Virus record (IMG/VR): IMGVR_UViG_3300025326_000018
Location: 1-64,000 of that record
Direction: 5' to 3' (one strand)
DNA length: 64,000 nt
From: a virus
Below, in pieces: positions 3,579-63,152 of the stretch. Position 1 is the stretch's first letter. The number at the start of each line of letters is the position of its first letter. The notes beneath the pieces were generated by a model. That model made no database searches, had not been told where the DNA came from, and saw nothing but the letters and a program-made list of their open reading frames with translations. The position numbers were made by a program, and so were the translations under genes.

Positions 3579-5642
3579 ATGCAGTTTATTCCGCAGTCTC
3601 GAATCGTGCAGTGCAAGCACGCCGTTCTAGGTAAGGCCTTACCTCCCGATGTGCGACGTATCGTTACATTCGAGACCGGTCAAGAGACTCTGATTCGCGC
3701 AGCCTTCAATACATTTCTGGAGGGCTGTAAGTCAGATGATGTGGTCGGCAAGTTCCGTGACATGTACGCCGCCAACAGGCTTGTGCAGTGCTTATCCGTC
3801 ACCGACGATCTTGTAGAAGACTTTTCAGAGGTTCTTCCTACCGTCTTCGAGAACGCAGGAAACTTCGAGACGCGCTGGCTGATTAAAGAATTGGATATCA
3901 CGCAAGTCAAGAAGATAGAAGTTAGCCCGACAGTCAATCTATCGTTCGATCCTGGTAGTGCTGATGCTGCACGCTTGATGCGTCAATCACTTCTTGAATT
4001 CATTCGTGAGATAGTAGATGCGCAAAGGAAAGCAATTCGTACTGTCCTCGCACGTGCGTTGAAAGAAGGTATGAGTCCCATCGAGGCCTCAAGGTTGTTT
4101 CGTGATCAGATTGGCTTGACACAACGCCAGATGGGAGCAGTCTCCAACTATCGTAGCCTTCTACAGAGTGGAAGTTCGGAAGCGCTGGATCGTACTCTTC
4201 GGGATCGTCGATTTGATTCCTCTGTATCTCGTGCAATCGATCGAGGTGTTCAATTATCTACTTCTCAAATCGATAGGATGGTGGGTCGCTACCAGGAACG
4301 GATGTTGTCTATGCGCGCGGAAACTATCGCGCGTACGGAGATGCTGAGTACGACCAATGTGGCACGACATCAAGCGATGATGCAGACGGCTACTAAAGTT
4401 GATTTGGAGATGGGCCGCATCCGCCGCACCTGGCGTACGAATGTAGATGGTCGTGAGCGTCAGACACACTTCTTTCTAAACAAACAAGAGCGCGGTGCTG
4501 AAGAACATTTCGTTAGCGTATCTGGTGCGAAATTGATGTATCCTGGAGATAGATCAGCACCAGCGGCGGAGACTATTCAATGCCGCTGTACTACGCTCAC
4601 GAAAATACTTCCACCGGGTCAGAGTACAGCGTTACAACGCCCGATTGTTGTTACGCCAAAACCTGCCCCTCCGCCAATATACACGAGTCTTAAAACCTCG
4701 TACGATACTGACTACGCTGATGGCTTTGTCACCTTTGCTGATAATGATGCAGCACGAGGAGCATTCAATCAGCTGAACTCGCAGGTGGCTGATGTTCTAA
4801 AGAATGTAGAAGCTGCTCAAATTGCTGAAGCAGACAAGATACTCAGCGCGGCCTTGAAGACGGCGGAGGCTTTAGAACTTGCTGAATTGAAAGCGGCAAA
4901 GAAGTATACTGAGGTTGTTCGACAAGCTGCAAAGAACCGTGGCATCACGTCGACATCAACTAAGACTATCGCCGGTGAAGATGTTGTACAGGCTGCTAAG
5001 TATGAATATGGTGTGCCTACAACAGTTACGAAACCTCCGAAAGGTACTGGGAAAAATCCAGAAGATTTTATCAGTAATTTGAAAACAATGGAGATGCGTG
5101 AACTTTTAGACGATTTGTATAAAGAAGGTTTCACGGCAAAATTAACACTAGCCGAAATGGATACGCTAAAGCACTACACTTCTGGTTACGGTTATGAAAT
5201 AATCAATAAACAGGTAGTGAAGCGGTTGCGGTACGGTGACGCTCCATTCCTTGGTTATGCTGATACGATGCGTAGTGCCGACAGGATGATAGCTGAGCTT
5301 GACAGTGCTTTTGCAAAAGCCGTTCTCGCTGAGGACGTCATCGTCTACCGCGGCATGAAGGGCAGTAGGTGGAAACGCACCTTTGCGAGCTTGCAAATTG
5401 GGCAAACAGTGCTTATAGATCAAGCTGTGTTAAGCACTAGCATGAGCAGGAGCTTTGCGGCGAATTGGATACACGGCAGCGGTTTTGTTGTCGAGATTCT
5501 TCTTCCTAAGGGCTCTAGAGCGATCTCCATGGAAAAGTTGACATCCAACAAAACCGAATTCGAAATACTTCTTGATAGAGGTTCCAAGTTTATCGTTCGA
5601 GAAATTAAAGCGAATGCAGTAGTTCTCGAACTACTACCATAG
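3579..5642 (+). CDS. Minor head (MuF/SPP1 gp7-like) protein fused to a VIP2/C3-type ADP-ribosyltransferase domain
   Basis: RAETIARTE, RRTW...DGRER..H, YPGD...ETIQCRC (MuF); C-terminal VYRG, STS and EFEILL (R-S-E triad). Confidence 0.9.
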   Translation: MQFIPQSRIVQCKHAVLGKALPPDVRRIVTFETGQETLIRAAFNTFLEGCKSDDVVGKFRDMYAANRLVQCLSVTDDLVEDFSEVLPTVFENAGNFETRWLIKELDITQVKKIEVSPTVNLSFDPGSADAARLMRQSLLEFIREIVDAQRKAIRTVLARALKEGMSPIEASRLFRDQIGLTQRQMGAVSNYRSLLQSGSSEALDRTLRDRRFDSSVSRAIDRGVQLSTSQIDRMVGRYQERMLSMRAETIARTEMLSTTNVARHQAMMQTATKVDLEMGRIRRTWRTNVDGRERQTHFFLNKQERGAEEHFVSVSGAKLMYPGDRSAPAAETIQCRCTTLTKILPPGQSTALQRPIVVTPKPAPPPIYTSLKTSYDTDYADGFVTFADNDAARGAFNQLNSQVADVLKNVEAAQIAEADKILSAALKTAEALELAELKAAKKYTEVVRQAAKNRGITSTSTKTIAGEDVVQAAKYEYGVPTTVTKPPKGTGKNPEDFISNLKTMEMRELLDDLYKEGFTAKLTLAEMDTLKHYTSGYGYEIINKQVVKRLRYGDAPFLGYADTMRSADRMIAELDSAFAKAVLAEDVIVYRGMKGSRWKRTFASLQIGQTVLIDQAVLSTSMSRSFAANWIHGSGFVVEILLPKGSRAISMEKLTSNKTEFEILLDRGSKFIVREIKANAVVLELLP

Positions 5643-5813: not shown

Positions 5814-5983
5814 CAATCTATCGAGAATGAATGGCTCCATGGATTTCGGAGCCATTCGCATGTTTCGTCGAATTTTCCTATATTGCGTCACGTAAAGGGG
5901 TATGCTACTTTTGTCGTCCTACGAGGACCGGCCCCTACCGCACTACGGTGGCTGCCAGCGCTCTCCGTAGCTCCCCAGCACAT

Positions 5984-7156
5984 ATGCCATGGCAATCGAA
6001 CGCTGACCTTCCTGAGTCGGTGAGATCAGCTCTCCCCGAGGCAGCACAGACTGTATTCAGAGAAGTCGCAAACTCTCAAATAGAATCCGGAGCATCCGAA
6101 CCCGTTGCCAAGCAATCGGCATGGGCGGCGGTCAAGGAAAACTGGGAGAGGGGTGACGATGACCGGTGGATTGCCAAGATTGGTGCGCGGAATTCCCGTA
6201 ACGATCTTACAGACATCCAATCAATACATAATGCTGCTGTACGGCTTGGTGCTGTATGCGAAGCTCATGGTCCTGGGATTGAGAAACGTTCAGCTGAACG
6301 TTCGATGTATGTCAGTCGTCGTTTAATCAATTCCGATGAGTTTATTAAGTGGGCGAAGGCACAGGGATTCAAGACAGTGCTACAGCCTGGAGACCTTCAC
6401 GTAACCATCGCGTACTCGCACGCTCCGCTTGAGTGGCCCGCTTCCGTGACTTCTACTCTTGCTGCTGAGGATACAGCTGGGCGGGAAGTTGTCGCGTTGG
6501 GTGATGGTGGTGCTGTCGTTCTGCAATTCAAATCTAATGAGTTGAACGAGCGCTGGGATTATCTGCGCTCCGTTGGTGCGACCTGGGATCACTTCCAATA
6601 CACCCCGCACGTGACGATATCCTGGGATGCCGGTGACGTTGATCTTACCAAGGTGCATCCCTTTACAGGTGTGCTGCTCTTCGGTCCTGAGCGCTTCAAC
6701 GTTGTAAAAGATGATTGGCACGATTCGATCACCGAGAAGGTGTTCCACGTTGCCAAGGTCGAGGAAGTCAACGAAGAACTCGGTATCGTCTTCGGTTGGG
6801 CAATCATCTCGAAGATTCGCGGCAAGGAGTATTTTGACGTCCAGGGCGATCACATTCCTGAGGATTCGATGCTCGTCGCTTCGGCCAACTACATGCAGAA
6901 ATCCCGCATCGGTGGACACATGCATCGCTATCGGGGAAATGATGCGGAGTCAGTAGAACGTGCCGGAGAAGTAATCTTCGCATTTCCCTTGACAACAGAT
7001 ATTGCGAAGGCGATGGGTATTGCTTCCCCAACTACAGGATTGATGATCGGCATGAAAGTAGACCGGCCTGACATCCTCGAGAAGTTTAAGAACGGGACGT
7101 ACACCGGGTTTAGTATTGGCGGTCGCCGGTTACTTGATGAAGAGGTAGGCGCATGA
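5984..7156 (+). CDS. ChaB + Acb1-like 2H phosphoesterase + XkdF-like prohead protease fusion
   Basis: MPWQSNADLPESVR...AWAAVK (ChaB); two HxT motifs LHVTIAYS and PHVTISW; GIVFGWA...DVQGD...MH...GFSIGG (XkdF). Confidence 0.8.
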   Translation: MPWQSNADLPESVRSALPEAAQTVFREVANSQIESGASEPVAKQSAWAAVKENWERGDDDRWIAKIGARNSRNDLTDIQSIHNAAVRLGAVCEAHGPGIEKRSAERSMYVSRRLINSDEFIKWAKAQGFKTVLQPGDLHVTIAYSHAPLEWPASVTSTLAAEDTAGREVVALGDGGAVVLQFKSNELNERWDYLRSVGATWDHFQYTPHVTISWDAGDVDLTKVHPFTGVLLFGPERFNVVKDDWHDSITEKVFHVAKVEEVNEELGIVFGWAIISKIRGKEYFDVQGDHIPEDSMLVASANYMQKSRIGGHMHRYRGNDAESVERAGEVIFAFPLTTDIAKAMGIASPTTGLMIGMKVDRPDILEKFKNGTYTGFSIGGRRLLDEEVGA

Positions 7157-48446: not shown

Positions 48447-48505
48447 AGCTCCTTCAGCCTAGTCGAAAGATTGGGATTTTTATTTGTTTGAAGTAAAGTA
48501 TTCTC

Positions 48506-48538
48506 TTGCGTTAGTATGGATTATAGCTTACACATAAT
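48506..48538 (+). promoter_or_regulatory. Repeated phage early promoter (further copies at 48930, 49225, 52240, 52978, 54616)
   Basis: TTGCGT-N17-TACA(C/T)A-TAATG.(A/G)TAGG(C/T)AG; ACAGGAGA-type SD downstream. Confidence 0.8.
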
Positions 48539-48573
48539 GAGTAGGCAGTAGCCTATATACACAGGAGAAGAAA

Positions 48574-49633
48574 ATGACCAACCCTACAAATACCCAGATA
48601 GCTGCACGCCTTGTTGAACTTGCGGCCGAGATCGAGTTTGCCGAGCACAACGTGTGTGCGGTGAACGAGGCGGTCGCGCTCACAGCTATCGGGTTAGCGC
48701 AGACTCCAGTGAACGGTCTGATCATTTATACAGACCTGGATGCCGAGCGCATGGAGGCGGCCATTCAGAACTTCGAGAATATCGTGCGGATGTTCAATTG
48801 GGAGCGTGAGCAAGCTGCTCACACCGTTTCGAGGATAATCGAAGTTTTTGGGTGGTAATAATCGCCCTCGAGTAGAGAGAAGCCCTGCCGAAAGGTGGGG
48901 CTTTTTCTTTGTTTGATTTAAAGTATTTCTTGTGTAAGTAGTAATTATACTTTACATATAATGCATAGGCAGACAAACACAACGGAGAAAGATTATGAAC
49001 GAAGAGCAAATGAAGATTTTGGATACAGTGCTTGCTCGCATTCTTCGGAACTTTCCTGACGCTGCTGAGGACGAGGTCCGGCAAGTTATCGAAGAGGGTT
49101 TTATGGCCGGTTGCGAAGATGAATATACGCTAAATCGGTACACTGAAAAACACTTCAGCTTCTGATCAAACAGAGGCCCTACCGAAAGGTGGGGCTTTTT
49201 ATTTGTATGACGTAAAGTATTTGCTTGCGTTGATAGTAACTTTAGCTTACATATAATGAGTAGGCAGCAAGCTTACAACAACTCACAGGAGAAGAAAATG
49301 ACCAAGCATACATTCCGCAGCATTAAGACCGGCGATGTTCTTGAGGTTGGGTATCGTGGTCACCTCGACCGCTGCGAATTCCTTGGTTTCACGGACAACA
49401 AGACGAAGTACAGCGAAACGCCAGTATTTAAAACTGCCGCTGAGATGCTTAAGTTCGCAGGCGTAACCAGCTTCCCCGCTTTGGAGGAGTATCAGGATGC
49501 GCAAAATCTCGAGTACGGGCATCACTTTTACGCGGTGTTTAAAGACCTGTCGACTGGCGATGTTTTCCAAGCTTACCTTTTCAAGGGTCGCTGGGTTCTT
49601 GGCACTTCTGCAGACGTCGCAAAGCTGCGCTAG
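48574..49633 (+). other. Three monocistronic early-gene cassettes (48574-48858, 48995-49165, 49298-49633)
   Basis: Each has promoter, SD, ORF and hairpin-T terminator. Confidence 0.7.
48880..48907 (+). terminator. Intrinsic terminator (near-identical copy at 49174-49204)
   Basis: AAGCCCTGCC-GAAA-GGTGGGGCTTTTT. Confidence 0.85.
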
Positions 49634-49852
49634 TTGAAATCGGGTCGGGTGGAAACACCCGGCCTTTTATTTTGTATTCGACAAGGTTTTTTATTGCAAA
49701 AGGTTGTAGTTGGTCTTAAATACAACGGATAGACAGCAAAGATATTCAAGCAGAGCAAGTATATTCCGGGGTAGTAAAATCTTTTTAGTTTTTTTGCTTT
49801 ATTTTATATAAAAGGTATTGCATTACTACAAAGAAGTTACTATATTGTATTT

Positions 49853-50161
49853 ATCGGAGCTGCAGAGCAAGTGTCGAAAGACCCCTCAAGGCTCCGAAAG
49901 GAAAGGCTCCAGGCCCGACCAGCGACTAGAGAAGACGGTAGAGAGGACTACCGACCCGAGAAGGGGAACCAGGCACCGAACGGAGCGGAAGCTGGGAACA
50001 TCAAAAGAAGCTCACGATAAAAAGAAAAAGGACTTCCTGGACCTTAAACCTACCGGCCGCGAAAGCACACCGGAGAAGACGAAAAGTCGAAACCTAGAGG
50101 AAAAAAATTCCTCGAAGGTCGTCGGGAGATGAGCTACCCGGCTTGAATAAGACAGCTCATT
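49853..50161 (+). ncRNA. Candidate structured RNA/leader of about 310 nt
   Basis: Follows promoter TTGCAT-N17-TATATT (49818-49846); several GAAA-capped hairpins; contains a hammerhead-like stem III module. Confidence 0.55.
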
Positions 50162-50175
50162 CACAGGAGTAGAAG

Positions 50176-50478
50176 ATGCTTAAAGTTATCGCCCTCGCTG
50201 CTTCAGTTGTACTGCTTACAGTCCCAACGGTTTTAGCTGGGGAAGGTACCGAGAGGTGCGGTGAGAAGGTGACCTGGAAAGGCGTCTGGTGTATCGTTAG
50301 CCTAAACGACGCGAAGGCACATTGTACCCTAGCTGCAAAGTATGAGAATAGGGTCAAGCATGCAGAGGTCGACGGTGACCTCGACGCTGCTCAGATGTAT
50401 CGCAATCGCGCAGCTTACCAAGCTGCCGAGTGCAAGCGCTTCCTAGAACTGCACGCCGTAAAGTATCCGACGAAGTAA
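50176..50478 (+). CDS. Secreted hypothetical protein
   Basis: Signal peptide MLKVIALAASVVLLTVPTVLA; four Cys. Confidence 0.65.
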   Translation: MLKVIALAASVVLLTVPTVLAGEGTERCGEKVTWKGVWCIVSLNDAKAHCTLAAKYENRVKHAEVDGDLDAAQMYRNRAAYQAAECKRFLELHAVKYPTK

Positions 50479-50557
50479 GCCGAAATCTAGGGGGTGGCGA
50501 AAGCTGCCCCCGATGATCGCTGAGGTGTGAGAGACCCCGGCCCGATGAGGCATCTCA
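50479..50557 (+). ncRNA. Type II hammerhead ribozyme, copy 1 (CCGAUGA core)
   Basis: GCC-GAAA-stem III-GAUC-stem I-CCGAUGA-GGC; loop I TGAGA pairs with tail TCTCA. Confidence 0.8.
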
Positions 50558-50575
50558 ACTACACAGGATTAGAAA

Positions 50576-50989
50576 ATGTTCCTCGGAGAAGCGAAAAACG
50601 TCGGTAATCTTCGTCTCTTGCTAAACGCGAAGATGAATCTTTATACGTCGATGCTGGAGAATCTCAAGACTCAAGCAGAGATGGACGCTGCCTATGCCGG
50701 CGAGCACGGTGATGTAACTTTTCATCATCAGGCGCATTGGTTGGGCTGGTATGCCATCGAGCTTCCAGTAGCGGCGTTCACGGCAGATCAGGCGGCGCGG
50801 GTCCTTATCGAGATTAAGGATGCTGCCGACGGCGATGCAATTCCGGAGCGGATTAAGTCTGAGGCGCTTCGGAACGTTCTTTCGAGCATGAAGTTGGGTA
50901 GCCGGTCCACATCGGCTGCAAGCAACTTGGCCGAGGACGCTGTTCGCGCCTTCTGGGTGGAACTTGGTTCCATCGTGCTAACGAAGTAG
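50576..50989 (+). CDS. Hypothetical protein
   Basis: ORF ending GSRSTSAASNLAEDAVRAFW. Confidence 0.7.
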   Translation: MFLGEAKNVGNLRLLLNAKMNLYTSMLENLKTQAEMDAAYAGEHGDVTFHHQAHWLGWYAIELPVAAFTADQAARVLIEIKDAADGDAIPERIKSEALRNVLSSMKLGSRSTSAASNLAEDAVRAFWVELGSIVLTK

Positions 50990-50990
50990 A

Positions 50991-51067
50991 GCCGAAACCT
51001 AGGGGAAGCGAAAGCTTCCCCGATGGTCGTTGTGAGGTGGGAGCTCACGGCCCGATGAGGCATCCCG
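50991..51067 (+). ncRNA. Type II hammerhead ribozyme, copy 2
   Basis: Same topology with compensatory changes in stems I and III and in the pseudoknot (TGGGA/TCCCG). Confidence 0.8.
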
Positions 51068-51085
51068 ATCAAGTAGGAGTTAGTC

Positions 51086-52186
51086 ATGAACCAGTCCGCT
51101 AAGAAGTCCGTTTCTATCGCCGCAGCTTGGATCTTTGGTACGGTGATTTTCGCCATCGTGCTCGTAGCCGGTGGCCTAAGCTTGTATATTAACGTCGTCG
51201 TCGGTCTGACGATGGGTATCGCTGGTGCGGTGATGTTCGCTATCGGCGACGTCACGAAGATGGTTCTGCCGGTTGCCATGCAGGCGGTGGGCAAGACGGT
51301 GCTGCTGCGCAGCATCTACTGGATGGTCACACTCGTATCTTTCGTCTGCGCCTTCCTAGCCACTGCCGATATGTTCGGTACGCAGTTTGTAACGACGCAC
51401 ACGGCGCAGAAGATCGAAACGGTTGGTGCTGAGAACCTAAAGGACCTCCGCGCTTCTCTCGATGTGGCGCGCGCGATGATGCTCGCTGAGTCGAAGAACA
51501 AAGGTTGTAAGGACAAGTGCACCGCTCTTGTTGCTCGCGTAGACATCCTGGAGAAAGAGATTAAGGTCCAGGTTGTGAAGCAGCAAGCGAACACGACCGC
51601 AGAGATGTCGGGGAAGGCGATTCTCGGCCAGACGATGTTCGAGGTTGCTGGAACCAAAATCGACACGTACACGACGGCGATGATTGTCGTCTTCCAGATG
51701 GTGATGATGGAGATGATCAGCCTAATGTCCGGCTTTGCTGCTGGGATGATTGGCCACGCTATGAAGCTTTCCGCAGATAAGAAAGCGGAGATCATTGCCA
51801 AGAAGGTTGCTGCTGAGAAGAAGATTGCTGCTGCCGCGAAGAAGGTAGAGACGGCAAAGAAGAAAGCGGCTGCGGCCCGGAAGTTGGCAGCGGCAGCGAA
51901 GAAGAAGGCGGCTACCGAAGGTCAGGATGCTGAGGCGGCGAAGAAGCTTGCAGCGGCAGAGAAGATTATCGAAGCCAAGAAGATTGCCCTCGAGAAGAAG
52001 AACCTTGCTGCCGCGAAACGTCGCGCTGTCGCAGCCGCGAAGAAGGCAGCGGCCGAGGCCAAGAAGATTGCCGCCGCAGCGAAGAAGGCAGCCGCTCGCA
52101 AGGTTGCAGCCGAGAAGAAGGCTACGCGCAAGACCAGCCCGAAGGTTGTCCAGCTCGTGCGCAGTCAGGAGAAGATCAGCGCCTAG
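51086..52186 (+). CDS. Multi-TM membrane protein with coiled coil and Ala/Lys-rich (TolA/H1-like) tail
   Basis: About three N-terminal TM helices, one more near residue 205, then AAAKKKAA repeats. Confidence 0.75.
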   Translation: MNQSAKKSVSIAAAWIFGTVIFAIVLVAGGLSLYINVVVGLTMGIAGAVMFAIGDVTKMVLPVAMQAVGKTVLLRSIYWMVTLVSFVCAFLATADMFGTQFVTTHTAQKIETVGAENLKDLRASLDVARAMMLAESKNKGCKDKCTALVARVDILEKEIKVQVVKQQANTTAEMSGKAILGQTMFEVAGTKIDTYTTAMIVVFQMVMMEMISLMSGFAAGMIGHAMKLSADKKAEIIAKKVAAEKKIAAAAKKVETAKKKAAAARKLAAAAKKKAATEGQDAEAAKKLAAAEKIIEAKKIALEKKNLAAAKRRAVAAAKKAAAEAKKIAAAAKKAAARKVAAEKKATRKTSPKVVQLVRSQEKISA

Positions 52187-52190
52187 TAAG

Positions 52191-52222
52191 GTGGCCCAGG
52201 AGACTGGGCCACTATTTTCTTT
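52191..52222 (+). terminator. Intrinsic terminator
   Basis: GTGGCCCAG-GAGA-CTGGGCCAC-TATTTTCTTT. Confidence 0.8.
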
Positions 52223-52298
52223 CATATACAAAAGGGCGCTTGCGTAAGTAGGCGCTTTACCTTACACATAATGCATAGGCAGACGCACACAACAGGAG

Positions 52299-61314: not shown

Positions 61315-61929
61315 ATGACCCAACGACTGCCACAGGCGGGCACTCCTCACGTACTCGGATCTGATTGTATCGAGAATTTTATGGAGCGCCTCGTCGGTCC
61401 CGATGAGATGCGTCGGGCGGGTCTTAGTGAGACGCCTGCGCGGTACATGAAGGCCATGCAGTCCTTGACGCAGGGTTATCATATTGATCCCACGACGTTC
61501 CTAAAGGCGTTTGAGGATGGGGCCGAGGGCTACAACGGTCTTGTGTTTCAAGGGCAGATTCAGCTCTACAGTTTGTGTGAGCATCATATGCTCCCGTTCT
61601 TCGGAGTAGCACACGTTGGCTACATTCCCCGAGGAAAGATTATTGGCCTGTCGAAGATCGCGCGCATCGTGAATATGTTTGCGCAGCGGTTCCAGGTACA
61701 AGAACGATTGACCCGACAAGTCGCCGATGCTCTTGACGAGTATCTACAACCTGCGGCTGTGGGCGTGGTTATTCGCTGCCGTCATATGTGCATGGAGATG
61801 CGAGGCGTCCAGAAGTCGGGGACGGTGACGTACACTTCGCATCTATCAGGTGATTTCCTGAATGAGCCTGAGGCCAGGGCTGAATTCATGAAGTTTGTTG
61901 AGATGGCAGACTCGGGGTTACATATATGA
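61315..61929 (+). CDS. folE: GTP cyclohydrolase I
   Basis: ETPARY, SLCEHHMLPF.G, GLSK.AR, QVQERLT, HMCMEMRG. Confidence 0.97.
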   Translation: MTQRLPQAGTPHVLGSDCIENFMERLVGPDEMRRAGLSETPARYMKAMQSLTQGYHIDPTTFLKAFEDGAEGYNGLVFQGQIQLYSLCEHHMLPFFGVAHVGYIPRGKIIGLSKIARIVNMFAQRFQVQERLTRQVADALDEYLQPAAVGVVIRCRHMCMEMRGVQKSGTVTYTSHLSGDFLNEPEARAEFMKFVEMADSGLHI

Positions 61930-63152
61930 AAAGAATTCGAGTACATGCTCCCAAGGTGCGAACTGAGGGTTTGCAGCCTATCGATGTAGAGCTCATGCTG
62001 GACTCGGGGGCCTTTGGAGCGTGGACTCGCGGCCAGGAAATCAAGGTCCAGGACTACATTGCGTTCGTCAAGGAGTATGGTCAGTACTTTCATTCCGTCG
62101 TCAACCTTGATATTATTCCAGGTGATTTTGGAAGGACGAAGACACCCAAGGACGTTGAGATCGGAGCACAACGTTCTTACGACAATCTTCAAGAAATGAA
62201 GGCGGCAGGTTTGTCGCCTATTCCTGTGTTTCACCAAGGTGAGGAATTCCATCACCTTGAGCGACTCCTAGACGACGGTGAACCTTATATTGGGGTATCG
62301 CCATCAGGTGATTCCATCTCGCAGAACTCGGGATGGTTCGATAAGGTGTTCGACTACATCACTGATTCCTCTGGCCGTCCATATGTTAAGACTCATGGGT
62401 TCGGCGTCACAGCCGTGCCCGTGCTGCACACGTATCCTTGGTACAGCTTCGATAGTGTGACTTGGGTGATCAAGTCAGGATATGGTTGTATCTTCGTTCC
62501 TCCTGAGCTGAACGGCAAGGGCTCTGGGTTTAACTACAGCTGCAACCCGATATCAGTTTGGGTGACAGGATCTCCTAGAAAGAACGACCGATACGAGATG
62601 GAGATGCAGGGTCCAGAGTATCAGAGGTTGGCGCGGCGCTTCATCGAAGACGAGGTGAAGACGCAGATGCATTACCTTCGACATGATCCATATGTACGTA
62701 TGGAAGCCATGGCGATCTATTATCAGAACTTGTCGCGCATGCTTCCTTACAAACCGTATCGGAAGAAAGGCACGCTGCTACCAAGCCAGAGTACTTACGA
62801 CCTTCCGACGTGGAAGATGAAGAAAGCGATCTTTGCGGTAGGCCCTACTGGAAACGTGCGCCGGTCTGCAATTTTAAACAGACTCGGTATCGCCGAGAGG
62901 CTTTTGTCTTACTTCGATTTGCGTGATGCCGACCCTGCGGAGATTATTGCTTACGCGAAGTATGGGGCAGTGAAGGCGCCGCCGGCTCGAAGGACTCTGA
63001 AGTTTAAGAACATCCATCGCGAGGAGTATTGGAATCGTCGGAAGATCCAATTAGCTGACAGAGTGTTTCGTAGAGGTTCTACTCCTCCTTACATTGACCC
63101 CAAAGATGCCTATTGGCTAGAGCAGATAAAGGATAAACTTGATGAAGCGTGA
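61926..63152 (+). CDS. TGT/DpdA-like deazaguanine transglycosylase
   Basis: MLDSGAF, VNLDII, PIPVFHQG, HGFG, YPWYSFDSVTW. Confidence 0.7.
   Translation: MKRIRVHAPKVRTEGLQPIDVELMLDSGAFGAWTRGQEIKVQDYIAFVKEYGQYFHSVVNLDIIPGDFGRTKTPKDVEIGAQRSYDNLQEMKAAGLSPIPVFHQGEEFHHLERLLDDGEPYIGVSPSGDSISQNSGWFDKVFDYITDSSGRPYVKTHGFGVTAVPVLHTYPWYSFDSVTWVIKSGYGCIFVPPELNGKGSGFNYSCNPISVWVTGSPRKNDRYEMEMQGPEYQRLARRFIEDEVKTQMHYLRHDPYVRMEAMAIYYQNLSRMLPYKPYRKKGTLLPSQSTYDLPTWKMKKAIFAVGPTGNVRRSAILNRLGIAERLLSYFDLRDADPAEIIAYAKYGAVKAPPARRTLKFKNIHREEYWNRRKIQLADRVFRRGSTPPYIDPKDAYWLEQIKDKLDEA

Follow-up and report, generated by a model that had tools for sequence, protein, structure and literature searches.

Type II hammerhead-like RNAs with non-canonical cores precede each cistron of a three-gene operon in an uncultivated tailed phage

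Three RNA elements encoded by an uncultivated tailed phage, here called HH0, HH1 and HH2, are related to type II hammerhead ribozymes, and this kinship can be regarded as secure. HH1 and HH2 carry C instead of U at core position 4 (U4C), and U4 is treated as an essentially invariant base of the hammerhead. We consider it probable, at odds of roughly two to one, that the three elements are self-cleaving ribozymes of one transcription unit at 49.7-52.2 kb that would cut before each cistron, and that these RNAs, together with their counterparts in a related phage, G001, still cleave themselves. Judged from the sequences, U4C is probably a functional natural variant of the core and not a defect, because C4 is fixed in the paralogs, kept in G001 and present on three further contigs, and because the other catalytic bases and all helices are under selection. 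The original prediction for this DNA described two hammerheads, HH1 and HH2; both are real, and the count was incomplete, as a third copy, HH0, lies at 50084-50161.

The window, by which we mean the whole stretch of 64,000 nucleotides that was analysed, is the first 64 kb of the 78.6-kb IMG/VR virus record IMGVR_UViG_3300025326_000018. The public sequencing runs in which the record occurs are all of DNA and are labelled as soil, sediment and freshwater metagenomes. All window genes (100%) are on the + strand, and the products include a major head protein, a tape measure protein, ribonucleotide reductase, a DnaB-like helicase, an SNF2 helicase and a primase. A blastn comparison of window positions 49800-52200 with 50,697 deposited phage records gave 0 matches. 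Several other genes of the window deserve mention. A MuF-like head morphogenesis protein (3579-5642, +) ends in an ADP-ribosyltransferase exoenzyme domain (PF03496, E 4e-17; Alt-like in PHROGs), and a 441-aa protein encoded within the head-morphogenesis region (5831-7156, +) combines ChaB, Acb1 anti-CBASS (PF23474, E 1e-37) and XkdF-like protease domains. The gene at 61926-63152 (+) encodes a queuine tRNA-ribosyltransferase-like protein (PHROG 887, E 5e-41) that has no Pfam match; phage proteins of this kind are linked to 7-deazaguanine DNA modification.

The operon is arranged in the order leader, HH0, ORF1, HH1, ORF2, HH2, ORF3 and terminator-like hairpin (Table 1). Another terminator-like hairpin, upstream, may close the preceding transcription unit and would mark the upstream edge of the operon, while the hairpin directly 3' of ORF3 marks its downstream edge. 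The promoter-like site ahead of the leader was recognized by direct reading of an AT-rich stretch; it falls below the cutoff of the consensus scan, so that it is unlisted there, and it is kept in G001 as TTGCGT-N17-TATATT. Pfam and PHROGs searches with ORF1, ORF2 and ORF3 returned no family for any of them. HH1 and HH2 begin 0-1 nt past a stop codon (TAA 50476-78 and TAG 50987-89, respectively) and HH0 begins after the leader; a Shine-Dalgarno sequence and an ATG are located 8-19 nt 3' of each hammerhead tail. For HH1 and HH2, this placement between a stop codon and the next Shine-Dalgarno sequence is the one that had been described. Just upstream of the operon (48458-49675, +) the transcription units are very short: terminator-like hairpins occur at 48458, 48877, 49172 and 49642, four in all, and position 49230 has a near-consensus promoter, TTGATA-16-TATAAT.

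Table 1. Features of the hammerhead operon and of its three hammerheads, with R2 covariance model matches
Feature	Position	Strand	Description
Terminator-like hairpin and T-run	49642..49675 (hairpin 49642-49665)	+	10-bp stem, 7 G-C pairs, then TTTATTTTGT
Promoter-like site	49819..49848	+	TTGCAT-N17-TATATT
Leader	49853..50083	+	purine-rich, structured, ~230 nt, without supported ORF
HH0	50084..50161	+	type II hammerhead-like, ahead of ORF1
HH0, R2 match	50084-50161	+	40.4 bits, E 4.6e-9
HH0 stem II	50086-88/50151-53	+	GUC/GAC
HH0 GAAA	50089-92	+	
HH0 stem III and predicted cut	50120/50121	+	stem III with UA/GAA internal loop; C17 at 50120
HH0 stem I	50121-26/50137-42	+	GUCGGG/CCCGGC
HH0 pseudoknot	50129-35 with 50154-60	+	7 bp, AUGAGCU with AGCUCAU
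HH0 core	50143-50	+	UUGAAUAA; U3-A8 swap and one inserted base after A6
ORF1	50176..50478	+	100 aa, signal-peptide-like N-terminus; no family match
HH1	50477..50560	+	type II hammerhead, U4C core
HH1, R2 match	50477-50559	+	48.6 bits, E 2e-11
HH1 stem II	50479-81/50549-51	+	
HH1 stem III internal loop	50488-89/50512-14	+	
HH1 predicted cut	50518/50519	+	from alignment
HH1 pseudoknot	50528-32 with 50553-57	+	UGAGA with UCUCA
HH1 core	50542-48	+	C4 at 50543
ORF2	50576..50989	+	137 aa, ATG at 50576; no family match
HH2	50989..51070	+	type II hammerhead, U4C core
HH2, R2 match	50989-51069	+	48.1 bits, E 2.8e-11
HH2 stem II	50991-93/51059-61	+	
HH2 stem III internal loop	51000-01/51022-24	+	
HH2 predicted cut	51028/51029	+	from alignment
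HH2 pseudoknot	51038-42 with 51063-67	+	UGGGA with UCCCG
HH2 core	51052-58	+	C4 at 51053
ORF3	51086..52186	+	366 aa, ATG at 51086; N-terminal transmembrane segments, Ala/Lys-rich C-terminal half; no family match
Terminator-like hairpin	52190..52223 (hairpin 52190-52213)	+	10-bp stem, 7 G-C pairs, then ATTTTCTTTC

HH1 and HH2 have the layout that had been read from the letters: GCC-GAAA, stem III with its loop, UC, stem I, CCGAUGA and GGC. The pattern GCCGAAA-N-CCGATGAGGC matches the window twice, at 50479-50551 and 50991-51061 (+), with 0 matches expected (100 shuffles). In both copies stem II is GCC/GGC and GAAA (G12-A13-A14, A15.1) is present. Stem III has 3 bp at its base, a 2x3 internal loop UA/GAU, a GC-rich helix of 8-9 bp and a GAAA tetraloop. 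Next come U16.1-C17 and the 8-bp hairpin of stem I, which has a 7-nt loop; bases 2-6 of the tail pair with loop I in a pseudoknot. The core CCGAUGA agrees with C3-U4-G5-A6-N7-G8-A9 at six of the seven positions. The minimum-energy structure that RNAfold gives for HH2 is exactly the hammerhead three-way junction, and that for HH1 is near-equivalent, except that the base of stem III pairs in another 3-bp register. C17 falls at 50518 in HH1 and at 51028 in HH2, which agrees with the cleavage positions originally predicted. The stem III 3' strand (CCCCGAUG) and the core (CCCGAUGA) are near-repeats. The 2x3 loop UA/GAU, in some cases as UA/GAA, UA/GAC or UC/GGA, is kept three pairs above the junction across the subclass of relatives described below; we take it to resemble UAA/GAN-type loops.

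The differences between the two copies speak for base pairing. Stem III shows a change from U-A to C-G, as had been claimed, and the exchange of UGAGA/UCUCA for UGGGA/UCCCG in the pseudoknot was likewise confirmed. In stem I three pair changes are real (A.C to U-A, G-C to A-U and U-A to G-C), whereas the example originally cited for this stem, GCTG against GTTG, is only a C-G to U-G wobble. G-U pairs restrict the hammerhead fold to the + strand.

Rfam gave no indication of these elements: cmscan reported no hammerhead in the whole window at the gathering threshold and none in 50400-51150 at E<=10. The gathering threshold of RF02276 (Hammerhead_II) is 37 bits. Locus L010 (G004:C1:397-4141, minus strand), part of another phage record that has about nine tandem canonical type II hammerheads within its first 4.2 kb, served as a control. 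Its canonical-core hammerheads score only 21-28 bits with Rfam and most go unreported; Rfam reports 2 of the ~9, both below threshold. A search for relatives in IMG/VR, in which the pattern held stem III fixed and left core position 4 open, brought up eight other loci with the same GAAA/stem III/UC architecture and with CUGAUGA at the homologous position. Rfam at its gathering threshold also misses the canonical relatives with the stem III loop, and in L011 a missed copy is in tandem with two Rfam-certified Hammerhead_II matches. The silence of Rfam is thus no evidence against hammerhead identity, because RF02276 is too narrow and misses canonical-core relatives. It misses a whole subclass, that with the stem III loop, and for this reason phage hammerheads are under-annotated.

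A covariance model named R2 was built from 28 canonical-core hammerheads on other phage contigs and from nothing else, and it matches HH0, HH1 and HH2 with high significance (Table 1); the R1 covariance model gives HH1 70.1 bits. A search with hammerhead models, which had been suggested as a check, therefore had a divided outcome, the Rfam type II model giving no match and R2 matching all three copies. The type II assignment with a U4C core, as originally put forward for HH1 and HH2, is supported by the R2 matches, by the eight CUGAUGA relatives, by covariation of the helices and of the pseudoknot and by conservation in G001. With respect to the hammerhead clan CL00010, helices I, II and III covary round the junction, and the cores of HH0, HH1 and HH2 all deviate from C3-U4-G5-A6-N7-G8-A9; these deviations lower the case for membership in the clan but do not exclude it, rare natural variants being accepted (PMC3088659). 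G12-A13-A14, the A15.1-U16.1 pair, H17 and the G10.1-C11.1 pair are invariant in 3/3 window copies and in 9/9 aligned non-canonical copies. The topology is that of type II, with stems I and III closed by loops and stem II open, and loop I forms a pseudoknot of 5-7 bp, with compensatory changes, with the bases just 3' of stem II. None of the copies reaches the 37 bits of RF02276, and all three, by their significant R2 matches, belong to the subclass with the stem III internal loop, which is defined in this analysis from the IMG/VR relatives.

HH0 turned up with covariance models made in this analysis, and its R1 score is 44.9 bits (E 4e-10). Its core reads U-U-G-A-A-U-A-A, and the core of the G001 ortholog is 7 nt long, UUGAUAA. 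The leader that precedes HH0 has 82% column identity with the G001 leader (L061:5707-5940, minus strand), which exceeds the conservation of the neighbouring genes, and there are 9 compensatory pairs between the two sequences. A search of the leader against Rfam gave no match. We regard the leader as a probable structured non-coding RNA, which cleavage by HH0 would set free.

G001 (IMGVR_UViG_3300023263_000002, 100.9 kb) is the single related phage found. Its syntenic operon encodes proteins with 43% (ORF1), 57% (ORF2) and 51% (ORF3) identity to those of the window, and a search for more orthologous operons gave nothing with the single ORF3 protein and G001 alone with a two-sequence ORF3 alignment. 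G001 has four hammerheads, three at the orthologous places and one more downstream, with the cores UUGAUAA, CCGAUGA, CCGAUGA and UUGAUAA in operon order, so that U4C is found at both positions orthologous to HH1 and HH2. The fourth (G001:C1:21300-21380, minus strand, the same as L061:2801-2881) follows the ORF3 ortholog at a distance of ~1.9 kb, flanked by two genes of ~77 aa, and is without counterpart in the window. Hammerheads of the window and of G001 are 82-83% identical, compared to 55-60% for the adjacent coding DNA. In contigs from other samples, strain variants alter HH2 at three places only, a stem III A to G change that leaves the position paired (G-U), N7, which is the single free core position, and one base beyond the tail; C4 is kept.

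Covariation extends over all nine aligned non-canonical copies. In 17 pairs of 4 helix segments 97.4% of cells are paired, and 10 of the 17 pairs show double compensatory changes, a result equalled by none of 500 shuffles; with slid partners pairing falls to 28-51%. The alignment was fitted to the model, which favours structure, and the slid controls and the raw sequences agree with its result. The pseudoknot was assessed in a fixed register because a free-register search is too noisy (mean loop/tail complementarity 5.3 for cognate against 4.2 for non-cognate combinations). In the fixed register 5/5 pairs form in 8/8 clade members, with six different sequence pairs, and only 4 of 40,320 loop/tail permutations are equally good. 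G5, A6, A9, G12-A14, A15.1-U16.1 and C17 are invariant in all copies, and the core varies at positions 3, 4 and 8.

The cores of 49 distinct covariance model matches in IMG/VR viral contigs were compared. CUGANGA is present in 41 copies, all on other phage contigs, CCGAUGA in 4 (window and G001 only), UUGAUAA in 2 (G001 only), UUGAAUAA in 1 (window only) and some other core in 1, on L032. Outside the window and G001 the canonical core is thus found in 41/42 matches, and the lone exception is probably a spurious match. Further U4C copies came from pattern scans of metagenome and genome contigs for non-U at position 4. The loci returned by these scans were mostly chance, since the covariance model rejects 11 of 15 metagenome loci and 8 of 9 genome loci, and the real sources are L047, L058, L063 and duplicates of G001 only. 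In total, U4C is represented by eight copies on five contigs with different stems, and in 8/8 all other core positions are canonical. L047 is a 1-kb soil contig. On its reverse strand (~153-237 and 481-585 of the reverse complement) lie a type II hammerhead with U4C, whose pseudoknot is UGGCC/GGCCA, and a canonical type III hammerhead; both precede a gene and have nearly identical Shine-Dalgarno contexts (GAAAGGGAAAGACTATG). An additional hammerhead-like motif may lie downstream on this contig. The 43-kb contig L058 has one U4C copy with different stems I and II, and L063, a contig binned with a Melainabacteria MAG, has two in tandem. The pseudoknot is 5-8 bp long in variant-core copies versus a mean of 2.8 bp in the 41 canonical copies, a link that is not independent because the seven copies of the window and G001 represent one lineage. 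In a literature search CCGAUGA was not found, and hammerhead and U4C occurred together in PMC3088659 only; what we describe is a conserved and so far undescribed core variant in a known kind of element (Perreault 2011).

How the operon may work can be pictured as follows. The region at 49.7-52.2 kb would be transcribed as one unit, and each hammerhead would fold during transcription and cut after its C17 (50120/21, 50518/19 and 51028/29), freeing the structured leader and turning the polycistron into three mRNAs. Each upstream product would carry a 2',3'-cyclic phosphate at the end of its GC-rich stem III hairpin; each downstream product would have a 5'-OH and open with the stem I hairpin, shortly before the Shine-Dalgarno sequence. 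Cleavage is probably slower than in canonical relatives, as expected from the non-canonical cores of HH0, HH1 and HH2, and the long pseudoknot of 5-7 bp may partly compensate for them. Perreault et al. 2011 (PMC3088659) suggested that defects of the core are made up for by tertiary contacts, and the long pseudoknots of the variant copies fit this proposal. Cutting would probably affect mRNA stability and the relative expression of the cistrons. Such splitting of a polycistron would match the published behaviour of tandem hammerhead arrays inside prophage polycistrons, which cleave in vitro and in E. coli (PMC3088659); type II hammerheads were also shown to cleave in vivo in Desulfovibrio (PMC8782182).

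Self-cleavage is favoured because fold, pseudoknot and all catalytic bases but position 4 (or the 3-8 pair) have been kept by selection, and this retention spans a duplication, the divergence of the phages and three further lineages. Several observations stand against it. The base changed in HH1 and HH2 is near-invariant, and the extra base of HH0 resembles the A6a core insertion, a variant of low activity (PMC3088659, Fig. 5). Most core changes cost much activity in published mutagenesis, and a viroid U4C variant, as its study (Ambros & Flores 1998) is summarized in PMC3088659, is considerably less active in vitro. The minimum-energy fold of HH1 has the alternative register at the base of stem III, and Rfam has no match even at E<=10, though it under-scores canonical relatives too. 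That the elements resemble hammerheads by chance or are repeats acting as DNA (REP-like elements or recombination sites) and not as RNA could likewise appeal to the absence of Rfam reports, and can practically be dismissed: no pattern matches are expected, R2 reaches E-values of 1e-9 to 1e-11, the G-U pairs and the covariation hold for the + strand only, and the placement on the coding strand, from stop codon to Shine-Dalgarno sequence, is conserved. The main rival, which we consider unlikely, is that of hammerhead-derived RNAs that no longer cleave and whose fold is kept for a non-catalytic role, e.g., as an intercistronic insulator or stabilizer hairpin, a site for an RNase or RNA-binding protein of host or phage, or a translation-coupling element beside the stop codon and the Shine-Dalgarno sequence. 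Covariation proves selection on the fold and not on catalysis, the canonical core is absent from 7/7 hammerheads of the window and G001 while real matches elsewhere keep it, and changes of the U4C and A6a type are reported in PMC3088659 to cut activity strongly. However, a structural role has no obvious need for the invariance of the other catalytic bases, and G5, A6, G8 or A8 paired with position 3, A9, G12-A14 and C17 are invariant in eight U4C and three U3-A8 copies with very different stems. U3-A8 is, moreover, a known active covariation; U4C works in vivo in the viroid, according to the same summary; and the sharing of one array by a U4C and a canonical hammerhead in nearly identical Shine-Dalgarno contexts on L047 suggests that the two are interchangeable.

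It is also conceivable, though again improbable, that the ribozymes are conditional and that processing serves to time or regulate the three cistrons, in response to Mn2+ over Mg2+, to pH via protonation of C4, to temperature or to a ribosome at the stop codon abutting stem II. Natural precedents exist: A6C alone switches a phage hammerhead to Mn2+ (PMC7151607), and the core-insertion variants of haloviruses need high Mg2+ and precede an early polycistron (PMC3088659). With only 0-1 nt between stop codon and stem II, a ribosome that terminates there would melt the motif, and the near-repeats CCCCGAUG and CCCGAUGA permit alternative pairings. Neither feature is specific to the variants, however, as stop codons abutting stem II and the near-repeat (with U4) also occur in canonical relatives. 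A doubtful extension is that this lineage abandoned the canonical core in every hammerhead while strengthening the pseudoknot, which would make the ribozymes slow or dependent on metal, pH or translation. If so, slow or conditional hammerheads would time the release of the leader and set the relative expression of the three cistrons, acting as a regulatory device and not as constitutive cutters. With three ribozymes, one per cistron, and a leader, the operon is a compact test system for whether core variants tune the rate or the conditions of cleavage.

Type II hammerheads that carry a pseudoknot between loop I and the 3' tail abound in prophages (PMC3088659), and the role of hammerheads in bacteria and phages is stated to be unclear (PMC7151607). 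The elements of the window share with the type II hammerheads of RF02276 and Perreault et al. the open stem II, the hairpin stems I and III, GAAA, A15.1-U16.1, C17 and the pseudoknot of loop I with the 3' tail. They differ in the core, which in the window and G001 is CCGAUGA or UUGA(A)UAA and not CUGANGA, in the conserved 2x3 stem III loop UA/GAU, in the longer loop I and pseudoknot and, compared to RF02276 members, in having no Rfam match at all, canonical members of this subclass also scoring below threshold. As in the Agrobacterium triple array that flanks ardA (PMC3088659), tandem copies are located between genes of one phage polycistron.

Each of the core changes has a counterpart among known hammerheads. 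The viroid hammerhead of Ambros & Flores (1998) has U4C at the identical core position, and in vivo its activity is sufficient, as reported in PMC3088659. According to that report, the viroid case is a sequence variant, and the hammerhead is of type III and part of a viroid RNA that replicates, whereas U4C here is a fixed feature of type II hammerheads in dsDNA phages, conserved across paralogs and diverged phages. The natural covariation of C3-G8 to U3-A8, variants with which are active (PMC3088659), recurs in HH0 and in two G001 copies, which have U3...A8 for C3...G8. After A6, HH0 carries an additional base, as does the A6a variant (PMC3088659), and unlike either of these known variants it combines both changes. 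Finally, natural single-site core variants of intergenic phage hammerheads are known from Bcep176, where A6C makes the ribozyme prefer Mn2+ (Naghdi et al. 2020, PMC7151607), and from haloviruses HF1/HF2, where the core-insertion variant 'HHphage' needs high Mg2+ and is located before an early polycistron (PMC3088659). Both of these variants alter metal dependence; in the elements described here, which are known from sequence, it is another core position that is changed.
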